Below are positions 55,833-64,000 of a DNA stretch of 64,000 bases, piece after piece (position 1 is the stretch's first letter; each line of letters begins with the position of its first letter). The notes below the pieces were generated by a model. The model ran no database searches and was not told where the DNA came from. It saw only the letters and a list, made by a program, of their open reading frames with translations. Source of the stretch: an uncultured Chloroflexia bacterium. Lineage in GTDB: Bacteria; Chloroflexota; Limnocylindria; Limnocylindrales; CSP1-4. The position numbers and the translations under genes are program-made. The DNA is taken from contig CAVYIM010000009.1 of assembly GCA_963768655.1 (NCBI GenBank), positions 231,440 to 295,439 on the forward strand, in the 5' to 3' direction.

Positions 55833-55908
55833 GCGCCCGTAGCTCAGTGGATAGAGCATCTGACTTCGGATCAGAGGGTCGGGGGTTCGAATCCCTCCGG
55901 GCGCGCCA
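55833..55908 (+). tRNA. tRNA-Arg, anticodon UCG
   Basis: Acceptor GCGCCCG/CGGGCGC plus GCCA; D arm TAGCTCAGTGGATAGAGC; anticodon arm TCTGA-CTTCGGA-TCAGA; T arm GGGGG-TTCGAAT-CCCTC; 76 nt. Confidence 0.97.
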
Positions 55909-55909
55909 C
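55892..55909 (+). repeat. att site, tRNA-proximal junction
   Basis: TCCCTCCGGGCGCGCCAC, identical to 63277-63294. Confidence 0.92.
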
Positions 55910-55910
55910 A

Positions 55911-57541
55911 CTAACCAGCGAGCGTAGCGGTCGCTGATGCGATCAGCGGCAGGTAGTCAGGGTGAGCCAGCCTCGCCTTCACGATCTCGTCGTCCCGGAC
56001 CTTGACTTCCGCGAACAGGTTCCGGCGATCTCGGCGCGCTCGGTAGGCGTGGCCTTGGACCAAAGCGTTCCGAGCTCTTGCAGCAGGCGCGCAGCGCGGA
56101 CCAGCACCGCCTCGCTGTAGGACGGCTGTGCGGCTCCTCCGTTGAGGGACGCGGTCAGTGCCCGCTTTCGGCCCACGTACTCGTCGCGGGTGATGTCGGC
56201 CTGCAGGAAGAGTTCCCGAAGGTTCGCCAGCTGCCGCTCGATCCGGGCCGTGTCGACAGTGGGACGTTGGATCTGAGCTTCGCGACGCTGGAGCCGCTCG
56301 ATGTCAGCCCGCCAGTCTGCCGGGATAACGAGGCTGGCCAGCCACGTCGCCAACCTGGTCCTCGAGTTGTGCCGAGCGAACGGCTCGCTGGTCGCAGGCG
56401 TGCCGCTCGCGCTGCGACGTGCACGCCATGTACAACACCGCTGGCGGCCGCTGCTCGACCGGTGGGCTTCACCGTAGAGGTTCGCCCCGCAACGGTCGCA
56501 GACGGCAAGCCGGCGGAACGGGTAGACGTTGTGAAGCTTGCCGCCGTTTGAGCCGCGGAACGACCGCGCCCGCACAGCCTTGATGGCCTGCCAGAGGCTC
56601 TCGTTCCAGATCGGTTCTTGCTCGCCCTGTTTCCACTCGGTGTCGTGGAAGTTGTGAGCCTTGCGCTCCTTGTCCGGCCGAGTGTGCCAGCCGACCTGGC
56701 CGACATATACGGGGTTGGAGACGATCACCCGGATCGAACTGCCCGAGAACGGTTCGCCCAGAGCGTTTCGATAACCCAGGAGGTTCATATGCGCGGCCAG
56801 CGGCCGAAACCCAGGATCCCGGTCGCGTAGGTTTCGCCGATGAGGCGGACAAGGTCGGCTCGCGTATATGTCGAGCCGAACCCGATGCGAGGCTGAGGCT
56901 CCGTGTCGAGGACGAGCTTGCCGGTCTCGACCAACTCCGAGCCGCCCTTGACCTTGTTGTAGACCGTCTCGTAGCTCATCCGATAGCCGATCGGGACGGT
57001 CCCGGACCACTTGCCGAGTTCGTATCGCTTCACCCGATACGCCTTCTGGACTTTCCCGCCGTGGAGAGTCAGGAACTCGTGCGAGAGAGCGGAGTGGACA
57101 GCCTGGCCAACCTGCTGGTCTGCGCTGCTGAGATCGTTCGTCTCGATGTAGACGACGATCACGCCGGCCTCGTGGAGCCGCTGCTCGTAGATCGCCGCCT
57201 CGCGTCGCTCTCGGGCGAACCGGCTCGTGTCGTAGACCAGGAGAACGTCGAACGCGCCGGCTTCCGCGTCGGCGATCATTCGCTGGAACTGCGGCCGGCG
57301 CGACGCCTTCGAGCCGCTGACGAAGTCCGTGTAGAAGGCGCCGTCGAAACCCTCTGCGCCCGGGTCCGCGTTCTCCACCTCGGCAAGCTCCAGGCCCCAC
57401 CGCGATGCGTATGCGTAGGCCGCGCTGCGTTGCACGATCGGCCCGGAGTTCTCACCCTGCTTCTTGGTCGACTCGCGGACCAGGCCCGCGCGCAACCAGG
57501 CCTCGAAGCTGCTCTGGGGCTCGCGGGAGCTGTCGCCTCAA
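55911..57541 (-). CDS. Large serine recombinase (resolvase, recombinase, Zn-ribbon, coiled coil) with several frameshifts in this sequence
   Basis: TTG start MRRQLPRAPEQLRGLVARG/LVRESTKKQ (catalytic Ser), RRPQFQRMI...DVLLVYDTSRFAR, PIGY, NPVYVG, CDRCG...YMAC; pieces lie in different frames. Confidence 0.88.
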
Positions 57542-57807
57542 TGAGGGCCTCCTGCCCTCGCGCCGTTGCTTGCCGCCGGCGAGGGCCTGCTAGGGCGGGA
57601 CCGACTCGATGGTCGCCGCCGTTGCCTCTCGCCACGATAGACCAAAGCGGGCGGGGTTGCCGCTACCGAAGCCGATGCGTGCCCCCGAGACACGGCTACC
57701 GGGCCATCTTCGGGAAGCCCAACGCTCTCTTGGGCCGCCTCCCGGCTGGCAACTGCGAGTGCGACTCGGGCGAGCACCGACATGAGTGGAAGCGCTTGCT
57801 CTCTCAT
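57538..57807 (-). CDS. 89-aa ORF between repSA and int (candidate directionality factor)
   Basis: ATGA overlap with the repSA stop and TTGA overlap with the integrase start. Confidence 0.5.
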   Translation of the reverse strand: MREQALPLMSVLARVALAVASREAAQESVGLPEDGPVAVSRGHASASVAATPPALVYRGERQRRRPSSRSRPSRPSPAASNGARAGGPH

Positions 57808-59155
57808 CCGGACAGGGCCGGCGAACGGGCGCTTCCGCGGTTACCCGCTGCGACGGCCCGCTCAGCGGGACTCAGACCTGCCCCGGCGAAGTGGAAGTCT
57901 CGCCGGATTACGACCTGGCCACCGGCGGCACGAGCGCGAATCCGGCTGAGCCACGGATCCGCATTCGCTCGAAACTCCGCCCGGACGGCGCGCAGCGCGG
58001 CGAAGGTGACCGAGTAGCGACGAGCCTTGGTCAGGAAGTGGCCACGAAAGCCCAGGTTGTGAGCCCAGCGTGGATTGAGCCTCCAGGCCGATCGCATCAG
58101 AGCGCGAGCATGAGGAGAGAGGTCGGCTCGTTCGATCACGCCCTCTACTCGGATCCGTCGATCAAGACCACCGGCAATCTGTGCGTCCTTGGTGGCGTAC
58201 TTGGCGAGGTAGCCCGCTACGCCGGCTCCGTGCCCGTCGCCTGCTTGCGGGCTCGCAGTTATCGGTCTCGTGTCGATCTGCTCACCCCAGCGGATCACCA
58301 TCTCACGTCCACCGGGTCCCGCCACCGTGACCGCTACGCGCGCCGCGGTGCGGGCGACGGCCTCCGCTAGACGCTGCGCCGTCGCTCCGCCCGCCGGCGC
58401 GGTGTCGGGACCGCCGGGTCCGTCGAGTCGGATGACCGCATGGACGTGGACCGATCCACGGGCCTGGAACTCGGCGACCTTGGCATAGGCGACACGGACC
58501 TGGCGTCGCAGGGCTGCCACGCTCAGGCCGCCCAAGGCCGCGAGCTCGCGAGGCAGGTACGTGATCGTCCGCCGCCACAGGGCTCCGAGGTTCGCGTTCC
58601 ATAGCGCCGCGGCTTCGTAGCCGTAGCAGTCGGGGCAGATGGCCTGGCCGACGAGCGGATCGCCATCTTCATGGCGAGCCGTGCAGCTTGTGGGAACGCC
58701 GTGCAAGCAAGCGCCGTCTACGCCGGGATGACACGGGCGGACCTGATCCTCACTCACGACTCGCCGATGGACTGCTCCGAACGAGGGAGCGGTGAACGTC
58801 GCGAAGACGACCGGGTGCGAGGCCACGGATGTCGAGACACTTTGGCCTCACTTCCCTCAAGCCCCGCGGCTACCAGGAAGTAGGCGTCGCGGCGATACCG
58901 CTCCGAGCAAGGCGGGCACCGCGACTCGCGTCGGTTGCCACAGGCGACCAGGACGAAGCCCGGAGCCTCGGACCTGGTCGATCGACGAGCGACAACCTGA
59001 CCAGTCGAAGCCAGCGCCGCGACCGACTCGCCCTCCAGGCGGATCGGCGAGGTACAACCGCCGGTTCGGCGGATCAGCTCGACGAGGGCAGGTGCGCCGG
59101 CGCCGTAGCGGGCAGCGAGCACCGCCAGCGACGCCGGCTCATGCACGAGCACCAC
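57804..59155 (-). CDS. repSA: RepSA-type rolling-circle replication initiator (frameshift near 58830-58860)
   Basis: GGCTSPIRL, CGNRRESRCPPCSERY, FATFTAPSFGAVH, KVAEFQARG, HUH motif VHVHAVIRLDG, YLAKYATK, WAHNLGFRGHFLTKARRYS. Confidence 0.9.
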
Positions 59156-59162
59156 CCGATCC

Positions 59163-59588
59163 TCAGGCGCTCTGCTCGGTGCGATGGAGCGTCTGCGGGA
59201 TCTGGGCCTTCACCGTCGCTCCACGAACCGCAGTCGCGCGGAACGACCACGCGAGGCGAGGCCGGGAGCCCGACGTGTCCACGTAACCGGTCGCTGTTAG
59301 GCCCTCGAAGGCAACGGCTGGGAAGGGCGAACCAGCCGGCGCCTGGGGAAGGGTCGGCGGATTGCGGGACGCGATCTTGACCTTGACGACCTTGTTCCGA
59401 GCCTCCGGATCGGCGTCGAAGACCGAGATCGCCCAGAGCGGCAGACCCGAGTCGCGATCGTGCGCCTGGACCCGCTGCTCGGGTGTCGAGGCATCGAAGT
59501 CGATGACCTGCTCTACGCCTCCGACCGCGTATGCGCCGGCTGGGAACAGGAGCTCGTGGGTGATGGGGATGTTTCTGCCGAGTGCCAT
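59163..59588 (-). CDS. Pra-like protein (actinomycete element replication/integration/excision activator family)
   Basis: AAGGAG RBS; FPAGAYAVG.VEQVIDFD...DRDSGLPLW...DADPEAR...VKVKIAS...FEGLTA..Y...RLAWSFRA, recognised from AICE proteins. Confidence 0.7.
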   Translation of the reverse strand: MALGRNIPITHELLFPAGAYAVGGVEQVIDFDASTPEQRVQAHDRDSGLPLWAISVFDADPEARNKVVKVKIASRNPPTLPQAPAGSPFPAVAFEGLTATGYVDTSGSRPRLAWSFRATAVRGATVKAQIPQTLHRTEQSA

Positions 59589-60116
59589 GGATCTACTCCT
59601 TGTCTGATTTCGAACAGCACGAAAGAACCGACGCGCTGCGCACAGCTATCGCCGGATAGAGCTCGCCTAAGCGGCTCGAAAGAGTGGGGGCGGGCGCTCT
59701 GTCTTGGTCCGAAATGTCTAGCCGGACCTGCGCCGGTCGCCACCAAAGACGCTAGGCCGACCGACTCCGAGAGTCAAGGCTTCTGCGTACCATCCGGCGT
59801 ACCATCGGCGGATTTGGCCGCTGTCCGAGCCGAAATCGAGCCTGGGAGAGCTGCCGGCGGCCACGAAAACTGCCCGCTGGCGGACACAAACCGGGACCGA
59901 GCCTGGATCCCGGCGAGACGGTCAGGGCGGGCTCTACCTGACTTCGCTCGATCGCTGCGACCGGCGAGTATGGCCCGATGCACGGGGTCATCGGGCGGGT
60001 TCGCCTGTTATCGCCGCGATCCGCTCAACGAGGCCGACAACGGGGCAGCCCTTCGACTTGTTACGACTTTCTCTACGAGATCAAGTGAGCGCCAGGTGAG
60101 CGGCGCCCGGTAGGGT

Positions 60117-60365
60117 GTGAAGCGCAAGGCACTCTTCGCGACGATGGCAGATGCACTGAATGGTTCAGGGCTCGCTGTAGGTCCCGCGAACTCGGGTACT
60201 GTCGGTTTGAGCTATCCACAGAGCCATCCCCGAACGTGGACAGGAGTTGTGGAAGGGTGCCTAGCCGCCGGACCTTCGGTGTCGCACACTAACGCTTGGG
60301 CTGGGCCTTTGGTTGCTCTCGCGGTGGCGACGCTGCGGAACGAGTCCGCGCGGAGGCTGAGTTAG
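60117..60365 (+). CDS. Hypothetical small protein
   Basis: 82-aa ORF immediately upstream of the methyltransferase; no family recognised. Confidence 0.35.
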   Translation: MKRKALFATMADALNGSGLAVGPANSGTVGLSYPQSHPRTWTGVVEGCLAAGPSVSHTNAWAGPLVALAVATLRNESARRLS

Positions 60366-60386
60366 AATAGAACAAGGGTTCTGCCA

Positions 60387-61847
60387 ATGGAGGTCTCTCA
60401 CGTGCGGGAAATGCCATCGCCGCCCGACTTGGACAGTAACGCGAACCAACGCCAGGCGGTCGGCGACGACGACGACGACGGCGGCGGCCCGACGTCACAG
60501 GTAACCGTCCGCCGCCACAAAGTGCGAGCCACCGCCGAGACACTTTGGTCTCCTGAAGCGGTCGGCATCCCCACAAGACTCCGTGTTCGGCGCGGAGACG
60601 GACTCCGGTCGATCTCGCTGTTCACAGGCGCCGGTGGTTTGGATCTCGGGTTGTCCAGAGCTGGAGGCGGAGAGATCCAGTTCGGCGCGTGGGTGGAAAA
60701 GGACGAGGACTCCCGCGAGACGATTGCCCTGAACCACCCAACCGGGCGAGACGCGATCTTCGGCGACATCACCAAAGTCCACCCGACGCAGCTCATGCAG
60801 GCCGCGGGCTTGTCTAGAGGCCAAGCCTTCTTGGTGGCGGGAGGGCCGCCGTGCCAAGCGTTCAGCACTGCAGGCTTACGTCAGTCGATACACGAGCCGC
60901 GCGGACAGGTAGTCGATCGCTATTTCGACATCATCCGCGAGGTTAGGCCTCGGTTCTTTGTGTTTGAGAATGTCCGCGGCTTGGCATCCGTCGCGATCAA
61001 ACATCGCCGCTATGTGGACAGGATCGCCAGCGAGAAGGAGAACCCCGGCGAGCCGGACCTTGAGGCAGACCAACGGCTTGGCTCGGTCTTTGACCAGGTT
61101 TCTGGCCCAACATGAAGAGCCTGGGTTACGAGGTCGTCTTTGCACTCCTGAATGCCGCCGATTATGGCACGGCCCAAGTTAGGCATAGGTTCGTCTTCTT
61201 GGGTAGTCGAGATCACGAGTTTGGCTCGGGTACGTTTCGCAAGATGACGGGGCAGACCATGACCCTGCAGGACCTGCTCCCTCCAACTCACCACCGGCTG
61301 GCGCCCTACAGCCCAATAGAGCCGTGGCGCGTTCTACGAGATGCCATTGGTGGTATGCCAGAGCCAGACCCGAGGGAGACTTTCACCTACAGTCCGGAGC
61401 GCATCAATGTGTGGAAACGAATTCCAGCTGGACGCTACTGGACGTATGTCCGCGACAACCCGGTGTTGTTCCCTGAGGGGCTCGAAGCTCTACTGAAGGG
61501 CGCGTTCTCATCTGGGGGCGGTAAGGTTGGCTTCTGGCGGAGGCTCTCTTGGGACAAGCCATCGCCGACCCTCCCGACACAACCACAACATCGGCGACAG
61601 GGTTGTGCCACCCCGATGTCGAAAGGCCCCTATCAGTGCCGAGCATGCGGCGCTCCAGGATTTCCCAGAGGGCTACCGGTTCGCTGGCAACAAGGCGAGC
61701 AAGTACAAGCAGATCGGAAATGCTGTGCCGGTGCGACTCGGGGAGGCCTTAGGAAACCTGCTACTCTCCGTCGCGAGCGGCGGGGCAGTAAGGGGCACCA
61801 TTGAGGAAGAGGAAGACCCGCTACCAGTGAGAGTGGTATCAGCTTGA
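60387..61847 (+). CDS. C5 DNA cytosine methyltransferase (frameshifts near 61100 and 61590-61640; start uncertain)
   Basis: Motif I SLFTGAGGLD, IV GGPPCQAFS, VI FENVRG, VII/VIII LNAADYG.AQ.R.R, WRRLSWDKPSPT, X YKQIGNAVP. Confidence 0.93.
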
Positions 61848-62683
61848 CCGTTCCGCACGAGGTTGTGTGCCAACACATTGACCAGGCAGTGAAGGTTGCC
61901 GTTCAGCGTGTCACCGACCGTGCTGAGGAACTGTTTACGTCCGAAGTTGCGAGTGCCGCCAATGGCGGAGCATCTCCGTTTCAGAAGCTTCTGCTGCCCG
62001 AAGCGAAGATCTTCTCGTCATTTGAGCGATCTCTCAGTGCCTCGTTAGGAAAGGCGTTCGACTACATCGGCGCCGACATCGCGCGAGCTACATACGGTAA
62101 TGGCCAGCACGACTACTCGTACCACGGCTCGATTTCCCCGGAAACGCTCGGCGCGATTGAGGTGATTGTCGCGCGATACAAAGCGAAGGGGACACTGCAC
62201 AGGATGCCCGACACGGTCGCCGAGTTAGCGGAACTCGCGCCGATTATTGAGGCCAGCGAGCCGACAGTGAGTCGCACGATCAAGAACGACGTCTATTTTG
62301 TTGACCACGACCAGATCAAGAATTTCCTTGAGATCAAGACGGTTCAACCGAACTACGACACTTGCGACAAGATGAAGACTCGTATCCTGACAATCCATGC
62401 GATGCATCATGGCGGCGCCGACAAGATTTGTGCGCTGGTCGTCTTTCCTCACAACCCCAACGGCCTTGAGGGCATCTATGCTTGGCCGCCGCTCCAGTAC
62501 TTCCTGGATCCACAACACGATTGGAAGGCTCGAGGGCAAGCCCTGATGGGGCCTGGTCTGTGGAACTTCCTCGGCGACTCGGACGGTACATACGATGAAT
62601 TGATGGACTGCTTCTACGAGGTGTCCATCAAACGAAAAGACGAGATGTTAAGCTCTGCTAAGGCTGACCGTGGAGTAGCGTGA
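61844..62683 (+). CDS. Type II restriction endonuclease (TdeIII-like, PD-(D/E)xK)
   Basis: SSFERSLSASLG, NDVYF...FLEIKTVQPN, LWNFLG...TYDEL; coupled to the MTase. Confidence 0.78.
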   Translation: MTVPHEVVCQHIDQAVKVAVQRVTDRAEELFTSEVASAANGGASPFQKLLLPEAKIFSSFERSLSASLGKAFDYIGADIARATYGNGQHDYSYHGSISPETLGAIEVIVARYKAKGTLHRMPDTVAELAELAPIIEASEPTVSRTIKNDVYFVDHDQIKNFLEIKTVQPNYDTCDKMKTRILTIHAMHHGGADKICALVVFPHNPNGLEGIYAWPPLQYFLDPQHDWKARGQALMGPGLWNFLGDSDGTYDELMDCFYEVSIKRKDEMLSSAKADRGVA

Positions 62684-63090
62684 AGAACCTAGCGATCACG
62701 TGCCCGCCCGACTCCTGGCCCGCTGGCCTGGACGGATGCGTCTGCCTGGGGATTTCGGAGGCCCGAGGGGCGGACGCTCTCTGGCTCGTCTTCCGAGGTT
62801 CCGACCGCACGGTTACCTCGGTGTCGGGTTTCCTTTTCGAGGGAGTCGAAGTGCCCCCGGACATCACAGCGCTGGAGCCCGCGGTCGTTGCTTCCGGCCC
62901 AAGGAGTCTCTGGGTACTGATCGCAGAGGACAGAACTGCCTTCTACAAGGCCGTTGCCGGCGGGAAGCTGCATATCGGAGGCGACTTTCGGGAGTTTGGT
63001 CGTCTGGCCAGAAGGCTGATACGCCTTACCGAGCAGTTGGAGTTGTGGACGCAGCTCGACGCCATCCTTGATTACGTCCAATCCTCGTAG
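62680..63090 (+). CDS. Hypothetical protein, weak SCP2-like C-terminal pattern
   Basis: GTGA overlap with the REase; LWVLIA...FYKAVAGGKLHIGGD. Confidence 0.6.
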   Translation: MKNLAITCPPDSWPAGLDGCVCLGISEARGADALWLVFRGSDRTVTSVSGFLFEGVEVPPDITALEPAVVASGPRSLWVLIAEDRTAFYKAVAGGKLHIGGDFREFGRLARRLIRLTEQLELWTQLDAILDYVQSS

Positions 63091-63161
63091 ACCTGAGGGA
63101 GCGGCTGCGCCTACGAACCAGACGTCCGATGAGCCACAGGCGAGAGCTAACGCGTCATGCT

Positions 63162-63194
63162 GAGCGCACCGAGCGCACCGAGCGCACCGAGCGC
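63162..63194. repeat. 9-bp tandem repeat GAGCGCACC (about 3.7 copies)
   Basis: Direct reading of the sequence; just inside the right end of the element. Confidence 0.85.
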
Positions 63195-63204
63195 CGTTGA
63201 TGTC

Positions 63205-63276
63205 CTAGGCGGCCTGAAGCGCCTCGACCAGCTCGTCCAGGCCCTCGATCGCGAAGGTTGGTGGCGTGCGTTTGTT
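63205..63276 (-). other. Orphan coding tail NKRTPPTFAIEGLDELVEALQAA* abutting the distal att site
   Basis: 24 codons, strong GC3 in the distal part, no start codon of its own, in frame with the att core (VARPEG). Confidence 0.65.
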
Positions 63277-63294
63277 TCCCTCCGGGCGCGCCAC
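63277..63294 (+). repeat. att site, distal junction
   Basis: Identical to the tRNA 3' end; part of an inverted repeat GTGGCGTGC-N16-GCGCGCCAC (63261-63294). Confidence 0.92.
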
Positions 63295-63386
63295 TCATTC
63301 GGGTAGTGACTGAAAACCCAAAGGCATAGGCGCCGGGTGAGCGCATCCATGTGAGATCCGGTCGTCAGTATCCGGCGAGTGCGTGG

Positions 63387-64000
63387 CTACCAAGGGTCCA
63401 CGACCCCTCGAAGGTCGAAGCCGAGGCTGGTGTAGGCACCGGCGCGCTTGGAATGCATCCGCGCCAGGACGGGATCCTGTAGTCCACGTAGTCATGCACC
63501 TCGACCCTCGTCTTGCCCTCGACCGGCCTGAGCACGCGGCCGACGTACTGGACGATTTGGCCCCGGAAGGCGATCGGAAACGCTATAAACAGCGTGTCCA
63601 GCGGCGGACAATCGAAACCCTCGCCCAGGAGACTGCCGGTGGCCACGAGCACTACGCCATCGCCGGGCTGCGTCGCCGCAAGTCGATCGACGATCGCTCG
63701 TCGCTCTTTTCTGCCCATGCCTCCGACCAGGACGTCTGGGCGAACTCCCATTTCCTCAAGTCGATCTCGGATAAAGCCCACATGCTGCTTCCATTGAGAG
63801 AGAACGAGGCAGTTGCGGCCCGACTGCACGGCCGCAGCGATGTCGCCACAGACCTGGCGAGTCCTAGCGTCATCCTCTACCAGCGAGCGGAAGACGGCCT
63901 GGATGGTGGGAGGCACCTCGCTTGTGCCGGTGACTGGATTTCCGTGGTTGGTTGGATGGACGACTAGCGTGCGCACCACGCCCGCCGTCGCGCCGGGATC
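63387..64000 (-). CDS. SF2 (DEAD/DEAH-box) helicase C-terminal part (truncated by window; frameshift near 63480)
   Basis: VLVATGSLLGEGFDCPPLDTL, QYVGRVLR, VHDYVD, then ARMHSKRAGAYTSLGF in another frame. Confidence 0.85.

Follow-up and report, generated by a model that had tools for sequence, protein, structure and literature searches.

The attP site of SSV1-type archaeal integrases lies within the int gene, and integration disrupts that tyrosine integrase gene by splitting it into two distant parts. In characterized large serine integrases, attP is a separate short site and the direction of recombination is set by a separate directionality factor; these enzymes are prized as genome-engineering tools because they are one-directional, with reversal needing a separate protein. 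The closest precedent for the locus described here is phage Mx8, whose integration target is a tRNA gene and in which the replaced part of the integrase is much longer than in the Chloroflexia element. Integration of Mx8 turns intP into intX by recombination that supplies a different 3′ end to the gene, and the available portion of the source describes an enzyme altered in behavior rather than inactivated (PMC6070905). In mycobacteriophage BPs and its relatives, as far as the accessible text of the source extends, attP is also found within an ORF, so that the form of the protein differs between the free genome and the integrated one; integration removes a C-terminal proteolysis tag, and Int itself is C-terminally tagged (PMC3694055). 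Among actinomycete pSAM2-type elements, about 14% (19/144) rely on serine recombinases, and eight of these share a single tRNA-Leu gene as their site; the available part of that survey makes no mention of att sites inside int (PMC3218068). The literature searched yielded no serine-integrase case in which integration alters the gene.

The locus compared here with these systems comes from the genome of an uncultured soil Chloroflexia bacterium. Within the window (the whole 64,000-nucleotide stretch of DNA that was analyzed), an exact 18-bp direct repeat (TCCCTCCGGGCGCGCCAC) flanks an element of 7.4 kb that is lodged in the 3′ end of a tRNA-Arg(TCG) gene. Its features are as follows.

55833..55908, plus strand: complete tRNA-Arg(TCG) with encoded CCA (ARAGORN); from 55892 onward it forms the att core
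55892..55909, unstranded: attL core, exact 18-bp repeat; on the minus strand, six codons (VARPEG)
55910..55916, unstranded: putative outer portion of the attP half-site on the integrase side (CTAACC, equivalent to CCAACC), in the last integrase codons
55871..57541, minus strand: broken copy of a large serine integrase, which would span from TTG at 57541 to TGA at 55873-55871 in the antisense tRNA
57804..59155, minus strand: RepSA, pSAM2-type replication initiator, split by a frameshift near 58839 (an indel relative to sister species G008)
59163..59588, minus strand: 141-aa ORF of the conserved backbone, with no family match
60387..61804, plus strand: cargo gene for a C5 cytosine DNA methyltransferase, spread over two frames, 60387-61115 and 61112-61804
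61844..62683, plus strand: cargo TdeIII-type type II restriction endonuclease (Pfam PF09520, 9.3e-35)
63205..63276, minus strand: stored integrase tail, 23 codons (NKRTPPTFAIEGLDELVEALQAA) and TAG, with no start of its own, in the frame of the core
63277..63294, unstranded: attR core, the second copy of the 18-bp repeat, exactly matching the attL core

The element resembles Mx8 in gene geometry, in that attP lies in the int ORF and integration gives int a new 3′ end. However, it is no member of the Mx8 type: Mx8 Int is a phage tyrosine recombinase, whereas the enzyme here belongs to the large serine recombinases and is encoded by a small RepSA element, just 23 residues are exchanged, and the part removed is a conserved short tail ending in AA. 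With BPs it shares an attP inside an ORF and a protein form that would depend on integration, but BPs has an interrupted repressor gene and a tyrosine recombinase as its integrase, while here the integrase is interrupted and no repressor is involved. Unlike in SSV1-type elements, the change is confined to the extreme C-terminus, and all catalytic and DNA-binding domains are preserved. The pSAM2-type elements are similar in their RepSA initiator, small size and integration at tRNA 3′ ends with direct repeats; they differ in that the present element has no FtsK-like transfer gene and resides in Chloroflexia rather than Actinobacteria. The phiC31, Bxb1, SPbeta and LI/A118 integrases have the same domain order and fold, and the site here would likewise be short and palindromic, but attP is inside the integrase gene and no separate directionality factor is recognizable in the element.

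The element and its broken genes

What occupies 55892-63294 is a small integrative and replicative element, in a copy that is decaying; it carries the large serine integrase, a RepSA of pSAM2 type, a single unknown ORF and restriction-modification cargo. PF20199 is found on both RepSA pieces (5.6e-99 and 7.8e-26), and PF00145 matches both pieces of the frameshifted methyltransferase gene (Pfam). Since no FtsK/SpoIIIE-type transfer protein was found among the ORFs of the 7.4-kb element, it is classed as integrative and replicative, and at most mobilizable. Similarity between the repeat regions is imperfect further leftward (25/30). A chance origin of the 18-bp repeat was rejected, as the same core with the same tail occurs four more times in the genome (C8) and in many related genomes. 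In a comparison of this genome (G000) with that of the sister species, the backbone (55868-60085) is 96.7% identical to the G008 element, whereas the chromosomal DNA flanking the element is only 66-86% identical. As judged from these sequences, the backbone identity, far above that of the flanks, shows an element that was recently mobile. The same tRNA gene in G008 bears other islands and displaced 47-nt tRNA halves.

Alignment with the intact G008 orthologue reveals six frame-disrupting differences in the window integrase (57485, 56809, 56441-56461 with a net +8, 56349, 56021 and 55925), so no isoform is made from this copy and nothing switches here. With frameshifts in both integrase and RepSA, this copy is in all likelihood inactive. 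As the sequence-only reading had noted, the frame stops at a TAG (55913-55911) 1 nt off the core; its prediction of a 1-nt error near 55925 is matched by a single surplus base at 55925. The eight chromosomal genes examined elsewhere in the window are all intact, which argues against a generally error-prone assembly. A local assembly error may nevertheless lie behind the broken genes, given that near-identical (99.8%) short-read contigs contain one extra base within 58570-58946, in RepSA, relative to the window.

The domains of the enzyme can be recognized despite this damage. PF00239 (Resolvase) matches 56785-57495 (3.8e-15) and the RESTKKQ motif is present, while PF07508 (Recombinase) is found on a piece of the window integrase whose zinc-ribbon part is cut by frameshifts. 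Homologues display PF07508 and PF13408 (precomputed assignments), with C348, C351 and C374 invariant, and R22 and S24 are invariant across 30 homologues. An AlphaFold2 model of the homologue P0012 predicts long helices at 390-509, in keeping with the coiled-coil motif that belongs to the zinc-ribbon domain, and the best Foldseek matches of this model are the SPbeta, phiC31, Bxb1 and LI integrase complexes (E down to 5.7e-18), which the integrase profile also matches in the PDB. By this predicted structure, the enzyme has the large serine recombinase fold. No sequence at least 30% identical to it is present in the phage and plasmid collections.

The integrase frame across the att core

The G008 orthologue, an ORF of 553 aa, crosses the att core and ends ...VARPEGFEPPTL in the antisense tRNA (fuller C-terminal end, ...SMVSVARPEGFEPPTL). 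The frames described earlier in the window are as claimed: the core reads VARPEG on the minus strand, the attL frame then gives FEPPTL and a TGA (55891-55871), and the attR frame runs from the core through the stored tail to a TAG (63276-63205). When the ends of 45 database matches were classified, the antisense-tRNA peptide after the core terminated 29; three are fused in frame to the tail (P0012, 573 aa, and P0036, 555 aa, both full length, and P0040, partial), three end in ARPEVS..., and ten were classed as other, although two of these (P0014 and P0038) also enter the antisense tRNA outside the pattern used. A further tail-fused form, P0051, is found at 45% identity. No homologue stops before the core, and the distal tail is conserved as coding (see below), so the outcome that the sequence-only reading had named as its refutation did not occur. 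Integrated copies were set against complete tRNA genes at Arg-TCG (L100, L101, L104, L105) and Arg-CCT (L098, L108, L015), and the geometry of integrase, core and tRNA recurs at Arg-TCG, Arg-CCT and Pro-CGG, varying with the integrase clade. These comparisons support the placement of the att core inside the integrase ORF, with integrated copies ending in antisense tRNA.

Unbroken DNA joining the integrase 3′ end, the core and the tail occurs at several loci (L109/L110, L115/L116/L118, L128, L130, L132, L134 and L141/L142). Several metagenome attP-like junctions likewise carry the integrase-tail fusion, and all of those in JGI metagenome contigs have truncated integrases. Such fused forms can come from internal junctions of tandem arrays as well as from free circles; none of the four runs searched showed a circular joint.

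These junctions also bear on the position of the crossover. The 9-bp inverted repeat described in the sequence-only reading exists (8/9 complementary), but the center of symmetry is probably one base further right, on CC rather than TC. In seven natural attP-like junctions (six distinct sequences), the center of symmetry is CC (55893-55894 / 63278-63279), about which a mean of 0.61 of 24 pairs are complementary, compared with 0.49 for the next best center. The outer arms, GGTTGG/CCAACC, lie 22.5 nt from this center. In this integrase clade, attP is probably an imperfect palindrome of ~46 bp (GGTTGG ... CC ... CCAACC) that lies wholly within the last integrase codons and encodes about V-G-V-A-R-P-E-G-x-x-R-T-P-P-T. 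We infer from this symmetry that crossover at CC is likelier than at TC.

Conservation of the stored tail

Codons 1-7 of the tail fall within the attP palindrome (GGTTGG at 63256-63261), and codons 8-23 lie outside it. The tail was analyzed in 24 distinct DNA copies from 22 loci, a set gathered with a protein profile and hence biased toward intact-looking copies. There are no in-frame stops inside these copies, and the terminal stop is at the same codon in 24/24 (17 TAG, 5 TGA, 2 TAA, no TGG). Diversity at the three codon positions is 0.204/0.163/0.463 in the 16 distal codons, where variation is mostly in the third position, and 0.265/0.287/0.26 in the seven codons inside the palindrome. In the integrase frame, pN/pS is 0.46, versus 1.04-1.29 in four other frames. 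Diversity is 0.046 in the core versus 0.705 in the 40 nt past the tail stop, similarity ending at the stop. The fixed stop, the third-position variation and the loss of similarity beyond it bear out the reading of the far-end tail as genuine coding sequence. In 5/24 copies CTG stands as the first core codon, which is therefore not a constrained start. At the level of sequence, the ORF geometry, its recurrence in homologues and the coding-type conservation of the tail are all shown by these comparisons.

The 16-codon consensus is [FI][VA]IEG[VL][DE]ELVEAL[RL]AA followed by a stop. The C-terminus is AA in 21/24 copies (LRAA in 13, LLAA in six, LQAA in two) and the final A is present in 24/24; the host ssrA tag, GNSQPAFALAA, ends in ALAA. 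There is also a second tail type, IEGxDEW..., that does not have the AA ending. The distal-codon pattern, the fixed stop and the length hold for integrases that range from 45 to 99% identity and have either of two att cores. A tail profile finds 59 places with E below 1e-8, in 44/401 family genomes. Tails (44 genomes) are thus commoner than integrase relatives (17/401 genomes, order sample), so most of them are orphan scars; decayed tails are seen at L067, L069, L074, L081, P0021 and P0100.

Two proposed integrase isoforms and competing explanations

In the proposed mechanism, the attP state, whether a free circle or the internal junction of a tandem array, would let the gene continue through 16 more codons to a stop. 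Once the site recombines with the tRNA, the tail codons would come to lie at the opposite end of the element and lack a start codon there, and the last 23 conserved residues would be swapped for about six (five to seven) from the antisense tRNA, FEPPT plus one. The earlier claim of two integrase isoforms is supported in its structural half for the family, by the comparative data, and does not hold for the present copy, which is dead. We infer that cells make both isoforms and that the tail has a functional role. As a best guess, the tail would tie control of the enzyme to the state of the element, through stability (the ssrA-like C-terminus), or through activity or directionality. By analogy with the ALAA of the host ssrA tag, the AA ending may mark the tail as a degron, activity or directionality control being the alternative. 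A decaying element with attP in the end of its integrase gene, integration that swaps the tail and a tail that may be regulatory is, as a whole, probably the right explanation. A more specific version is considerably more doubtful: that the DNA state of the element sets the behavior of its own recombinase with no directionality factor, the circular form making a tailed enzyme that is tuned for integration or quickly degraded, and the integrated form a tail-less one that is stable or capable of excision.

If true, this would be a self-rewiring switch in a large serine recombinase, common to a clade of tRNA-targeting Chloroflexia integrases. The clade itself extends to serine integrases the principle seen in the Mx8 tyrosine integrase and the repressor of phage BPs, and its integration-rewritten C-terminus offers a testable, protein-encoded coupling of enzyme behavior to DNA state. 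It also shows that serine integrases can target tRNA genes via the T-arm and acceptor end.

Alternatively, the swap could be real in the DNA but functionally neutral, attP overlapping the gene end for compactness and the post-core residues being dispensable. This would agree with the more distant tRNA-Pro-targeting clade, in which no conserved tail was found and the ends after the core are unrelated (LVGARG, then LAPRHRHH.., LAPTNRIS.. or VAPRLCR). AlphaFold2 gives the tail a pLDDT below 50 and shows no docking of it, and the available part of a cryo-EM report describes phiC31 integrase C-terminal residues 590-605 as having no density (10.1101/2025.05.02.651858). Yet the 16 distal codons, although outside the 46-bp palindrome, still vary at third positions and keep a fixed stop and length, and we regard neutrality as improbable.

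The conserved stretch left of attR might instead be an untranslated DNA element, such as an extended binding site, a promoter or terminator, or a plus-strand gene. The seven proximal codons, which overlap the palindrome arm, have no wobble pattern, and a plus-strand ORF (63157-63306) crosses the region in the window; that ORF, however, is the triplet-aligned frame, with pN/pS of 1.09 and six stops over the copies. The antisense frame that shares the wobble position reaches pN/pS of 0.48 with one stop, but it is Ser/Thr-rich, as is usual for the antisense of GC-rich coding sequence. This frame was rejected as a gene, since it has no conserved start and stops occur at its left border in 6/21 copies printed. 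Moreover, similarity breaks off exactly at the stop of the integrase frame, always a stop codon, and large serine recombinases act on short sites that lack arm sites, according to the accessible text of one source (PMC3694055). A purely DNA-level role is thus very improbable.

Least credible of all, and given almost no weight, is that the repeats stem from another recombinase, such as the tyrosine integrase of a neighboring island, with the serine read-through incidental: tRNA 3′ ends are classic tyrosine-integrase targets and the G008 tRNA has its other islands and displaced halves, but no tyrosine integrase was found among the ORFs of the element, the geometry recurs at three tRNA genes and changes with the integrase clade, and the junction is a palindrome of serine-integrase size, even if the portion of the survey available calls serine-recombinase integration at tRNA genes rare (PMC3218068).

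The tRNA-Arg locus also appears to serve as a landing pad, to which elements bring defense cargo (restriction-modification, TOTE) and then decay.

The integrase reading frame and its attachment site

The element is inserted in the 3′ end of a tRNA gene and is bounded by two copies of a short core, attL and attR, with the tail preceding the core at the attR side:

55833-55908, plus strand: tRNA-Arg(TCG), called by ARAGORN
55892-55909 and 63277-63294: exact 18-bp repeat (the core), of which the left copy is the last 17 bases of the tRNA gene and one more
63276-63205, minus strand: tail of 23 codons and a stop

Beyond the 18-bp repeat, a weaker likeness continues for another 12 bases leftward, so that the extended repeat is identical at 25 of 30 positions. 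Between the repeats lie a serine recombinase on the minus strand pointing towards the tRNA, a pSAM2-type RepSA initiator, a C5 DNA methyltransferase with a TdeIII-type restriction enzyme, and two ORFs of 141 and 136 aa with no family match; the cargo sits between the backbone and the tail. Neither a transfer protein nor a tyrosine integrase was found among these genes, and Pfam recognised no excisionase or directionality factor in the backbone ORFs. Recombinase, RepSA and methylase each occupy more than one frame in this copy. Pfam, conserved residues, a PDB profile search and Foldseek of an AlphaFold2 model agree in placing the recombinase among the large serine recombinases, with the SPbeta, phiC31, Bxb1 and LI integrases as top matches.

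On the minus strand the core encodes VARPEG. At attL this frame continues as FEPPTL to a stop within the antisense tRNA, and at attR it continues through 23 codons ending QAA to a TAG. The last integrase frame, as sequenced, stops one base from the core (TAG, 55913-55911). A reading made from the sequence alone had described the repeat, the VARPEG core, both frames and this premature stop, all of which are confirmed; it had also supposed that a 1-nt correction near 55925 would restore read-through. Among the 401 genomes of the order searched, a 99%-identical match to the N-terminal integrase piece occurs in G008, a sister species of the same genus, where the gene is a single open frame of 553 codons that passes through the core and ends ...LIASATVRSMVSVARPEGFEPPTL*. 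Alignment of the two copies places one surplus base in the window at exactly 55925.

Further frame-changing differences from G008 lie at 56021, 56349, 56441-56461, 56809 and 57485, with another in RepSA at 58839. These frameshifts may be local assembly errors, as suggested by short-read contigs of other samples, about 99.8% identical over 58384-59979, that carry one extra base in RepSA, and by the orthologue's state at 55927 and 57485 in all covering short-read contigs. However, eight chromosomal genes from other parts of the window each match Pfam at full length as a single gene, and the assembly is therefore not generally prone to frameshifts. The element in the window appears to be decaying, and its integrase copy to be a broken relic. 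Aligned with the G008 element (contig C5), window 55868-60085 is 96.7% identical, whereas the chromosomal flanks of the two genomes are only 66-86% identical, which argues that the backbone moved between species recently. The cargo between backbone and tail differs between the two, and one metagenome contig joins window 60085 directly to 63227.

Three side observations concern the surroundings of the G008 integrase. The intact gene adjoins a displaced tRNA 3′ half, which contains a 15-base internal duplication, and not the real tRNA gene (G008:C5:77239-104417; L040, L041); the same array holds two further displaced 47-nt tRNA halves. The real tRNA-Arg(TCG) of G008 is on another contig (G008:C6:9570-9645, L042), with an RNase H gene after it, and seems to be unoccupied.

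Two others belong to the window copy. The restriction-modification cargo (60387-62683) sets a frameshifted C5 methylase next to an apparently intact TdeIII-type endonuclease, a combination that would be lethal if both calls were right, so that one call, or the frameshift itself, is probably misleading. A perfect tandem 9-base unit, GAGCGCACC, is repeated three and a half times at 63162-63194, at the inner edge of the conserved stretch and 11 bases past the stop codon of the tail.

Homologues and the geometry of the site

A search of a large protein collection with the C-terminal half of the integrase returned 45 matches, which were sorted by their ends. In 29 the core is followed by an antisense-tRNA peptide, either ARPEGFEPPT plus one residue or, in a clade at tRNA-Arg(CCT), APPDGFEPPT...; three end in the tail, three end ARPEVS..., and ten are frameshifted, truncated or otherwise different, although two of these (P0014, P0038) still enter the antisense tRNA. 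None of the 45 stops before the core. The proposal that homologous ORFs run through the tRNA att core is thus borne out. In metagenome and genome DNA, ARAGORN finds complete tRNA genes overlapped by the integrase ORF, namely Arg(TCG) at loci L100, L101, L104 and L105 and Arg(CCT) at L098, L108 and L015. Relatives at 38-41% identity read through an antisense tRNA-Pro(CGG) (L018, L021, L024, L029), and certain others, at about 30-55% identity, run through different tRNAs and in different frames. It may be that an att site in the end of the gene is common among tRNA-targeting serine integrases; the relatives at 30-41% identity have no conserved tail. The ORFs of P0049, P0053, P0156 and P0181, in that 30-41% group with the tRNA-Pro loci, likewise run into antisense tRNA genes. 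A third kind of junction ends ...ARPEVSEFRT or similar (P0009, P0026, P0039, P0067, P0083) at a variant core, ACCTCCGGG..., which also occurs at G008:C5:83103. A single-protein locus search of genome contigs gave only two close loci.

Seven natural junctions, six of them distinct, have their best centre of symmetry between the second and third core bases, where a mean of 0.61 of 24 pairs are complementary, against 0.49 at the next best centre. The motifs GGTTGG and CCAACC lie 22.5 bases either side of this centre; in the window their counterparts are 63256-63261 and 55911-55916. Falling wholly inside the ORF, the site spans about 46 bp, which matches a serine-integrase attP in size. This symmetry suggests a crossover at CC. 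The inverted repeat first proposed near the start of the core exists, but the best centre is one base to the right of the TC dinucleotide originally favoured. The tail-side half-site resembles the T-arm of the tRNA (25/30 over the extended repeat), and this explains the FE..PPT that the two isoforms share directly after the core.

The tail as coding sequence

A 29-residue profile of core and tail, run against 401 genomes of the family, matched 97 genomes at E up to 0.01, many of the weak matches probably being plain antisense tRNA; below E 1e-8 our count is 59 places, spread over 44 genomes. In the 30 loci returned, all cores that meet a stop within 15-32 codons were extracted, giving 23 sites, 21 of them exactly 23 codons long; L069 and L074, the remaining two, are degenerate and were left out. 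The 21 sites, the window and two copies on contig C8 of the same genome (G000) make 24 distinct DNA sequences. Their collection with a protein profile biases the set towards intact copies, and decayed tails do exist.

In all 24 copies the stop falls at one fixed codon (17 TAG, 5 TGA, 2 TAA), and the frame is free of stops before it. Diversity rises from 0.046 in the core to 0.705 over the 40 bases past the stop. The seven core-proximal codons vary equally at their three positions (0.265/0.287/0.26), and the 16 distal codons vary mainly at the third (0.204/0.163/0.463). The distal tail, as had been predicted, is conserved as coding sequence. The integrase frame has a pN/pS of 0.46, as against 1.04-1.29 for four other frames; the antisense frame with the same wobble position is low as well (0.48), so that the ratio does not by itself separate the two. 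That antisense frame was rejected, having one stop, no conserved start, bordering stops in several copies and a Ser/Thr-rich peptide. A separate 29-codon gene is also unlikely, because the first core codon varies (GTG in 10, ATG in 5, TTG in 4, CTG in 5) rather than being preserved as a start. Long open frames upstream of the tails at L077, L083 and L085 are GC-rich chance frames rather than integrase. Overall, an att core within the integrase ORF, with a conserved tail, is supported at the family level by these comparisons of sequence.

A second type of tail, ...[YC].I[PR]IEG[AR]DEW[IL]..., follows the same core elsewhere (G000:C8:11723; P0070, P0169). It has only the IEGxDE motif in common with the main type and no AA end.

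Some proteins carry integrase and tail in one frame. P0012 (573 aa, 78% identical over the part searched) ends ...VGVARPEGFERTSPTFVIEGVDELVEALRAA; P0036 (555 aa, 55% identical, with the other core) ends ...VAPPDGSGHARQTFAIEGVDELVAALLAA; the partial P0040 ends ...MARPEGSERAMQTLRVEGVKELVRALVAA; and P0051 (588 aa, 45% identical) ends in a related tail finishing RAAA. In DNA, an integrase 3′ end, core and tail are contiguous at L109/L110, L128, L130, L132, L134 and L141/L142, and at L115/L116/L118 with two junctions each. At the contiguous-junction loci, including all those in JGI contigs, the integrase is a 3′ remnant only, and the JGI contigs with such junctions show no terminal overlap. A second element entering the tRNA-proximal site would place its tail beside the integrase of the older element. 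Tandem arrays are thus expected to hold such junctions, and fused ORFs are no proof of free circles.

The attP junction expected of an excised circle was sought in sequencing runs, the best of which shares at most 0.34 of the sampled words. No circular-type joint was seen at 90% likeness in contigs of runs X1, X2, X3 and X15. One X2 contig joins 55891 to 63277, with 18 letters fitting both sides and a shorter side of 30 letters, and is at most a weak sign of a tRNA site without the element. Searching plasmid and phage collections with P0012 (tblastn) gave no extrachromosomal record and no relative at 60% identity or above, the best among the matches listed being at most 28.6%. RNA-library contigs over the integrase are about 92% alike and give no sign that this copy is transcribed.

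Tails occur in 44 of the 401 family genomes, as against 17 of the 401 genomes of the order for integrase relatives at E up to 1e-20. Contig C8 holds four more copies of the core, at 2947, 11722, 12809 and 19145 (G000:C8:1-19162, L012); the same 23 codons lie before three of them and a divergent version before the fourth. The islands there have intact tails and no integrase; two carry the following genes:

C8, one island: TOTE-type primase-helicase interrupted by a group II intron; DUF4143 ATPase
C8, another island: hybrid histidine kinase; IS110 transposase; N6/N4 methylase

An element that lost its integrase-RepSA backbone would be reduced to cargo, tail and core, as in these islands, which appear to be older, further decayed elements whose tails record once-active lineages. 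Islands with defence cargo seem to form an array at the tRNA-Arg locus. Several att copies have right flanks similar to the native flank beside the unoccupied tRNA of G008, a likeness that serial integration does not explain. The contig of the window ends 706 bases past attR, and window 63345-64000 is 93% identical to C8:12737-13533.

Possible roles of the tail and related systems

In an AlphaFold2 model of P0012 (30-row alignment; mean pLDDT 75.4), residues 539-573, comprising the core-encoded residues and the tail, fall below pLDDT 50, with a short helix at 563-572. The model of P0012 alone thus gives no structural hint of function; it is compatible with a flexible linker leading into a small, acidic, amphipathic helix. 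An AA end is present in 21 of 24 tail copies, and the final residue is A in all 24. The host tmRNA (G000:C3:122850-123221, Rfam 127.9 bits) was missed by ARAGORN at default settings and found by Rfam, and relaxed ARAGORN gave its tag as GNSQPAFALAA. In mycobacteriophage BPs the repressor loses a C-terminal proteolysis tag on integration, and Int itself is tagged (PMC3694055). The extreme C-terminus of phiC31 integrase is described in a preprint as acidic and as contacting the directionality factor, and the protein ends VAA, going by the description of a linker there (10.1101/2025.05.02.651858).

By analogy with these systems, a degron and a part in activity or directionality are both plausible for the tail. 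If the geometry is real, a stability tag can be proposed tentatively, and a modulator of activity or direction is a slightly more doubtful candidate; some other role seems unlikely, and the absence of any role less likely again.

Integration of serine recombinases into tRNA genes is described as rare (PMC3218068). A literature search limited mainly to open-access text turned up no serine integrase with attP in its own ORF. The gene geometry is the same as that of phage Mx8, in which attP lies within int, a gene that acquires a new 3′ end and altered behaviour on integration (PMC6070905), although the Mx8 enzyme is a tyrosine recombinase.
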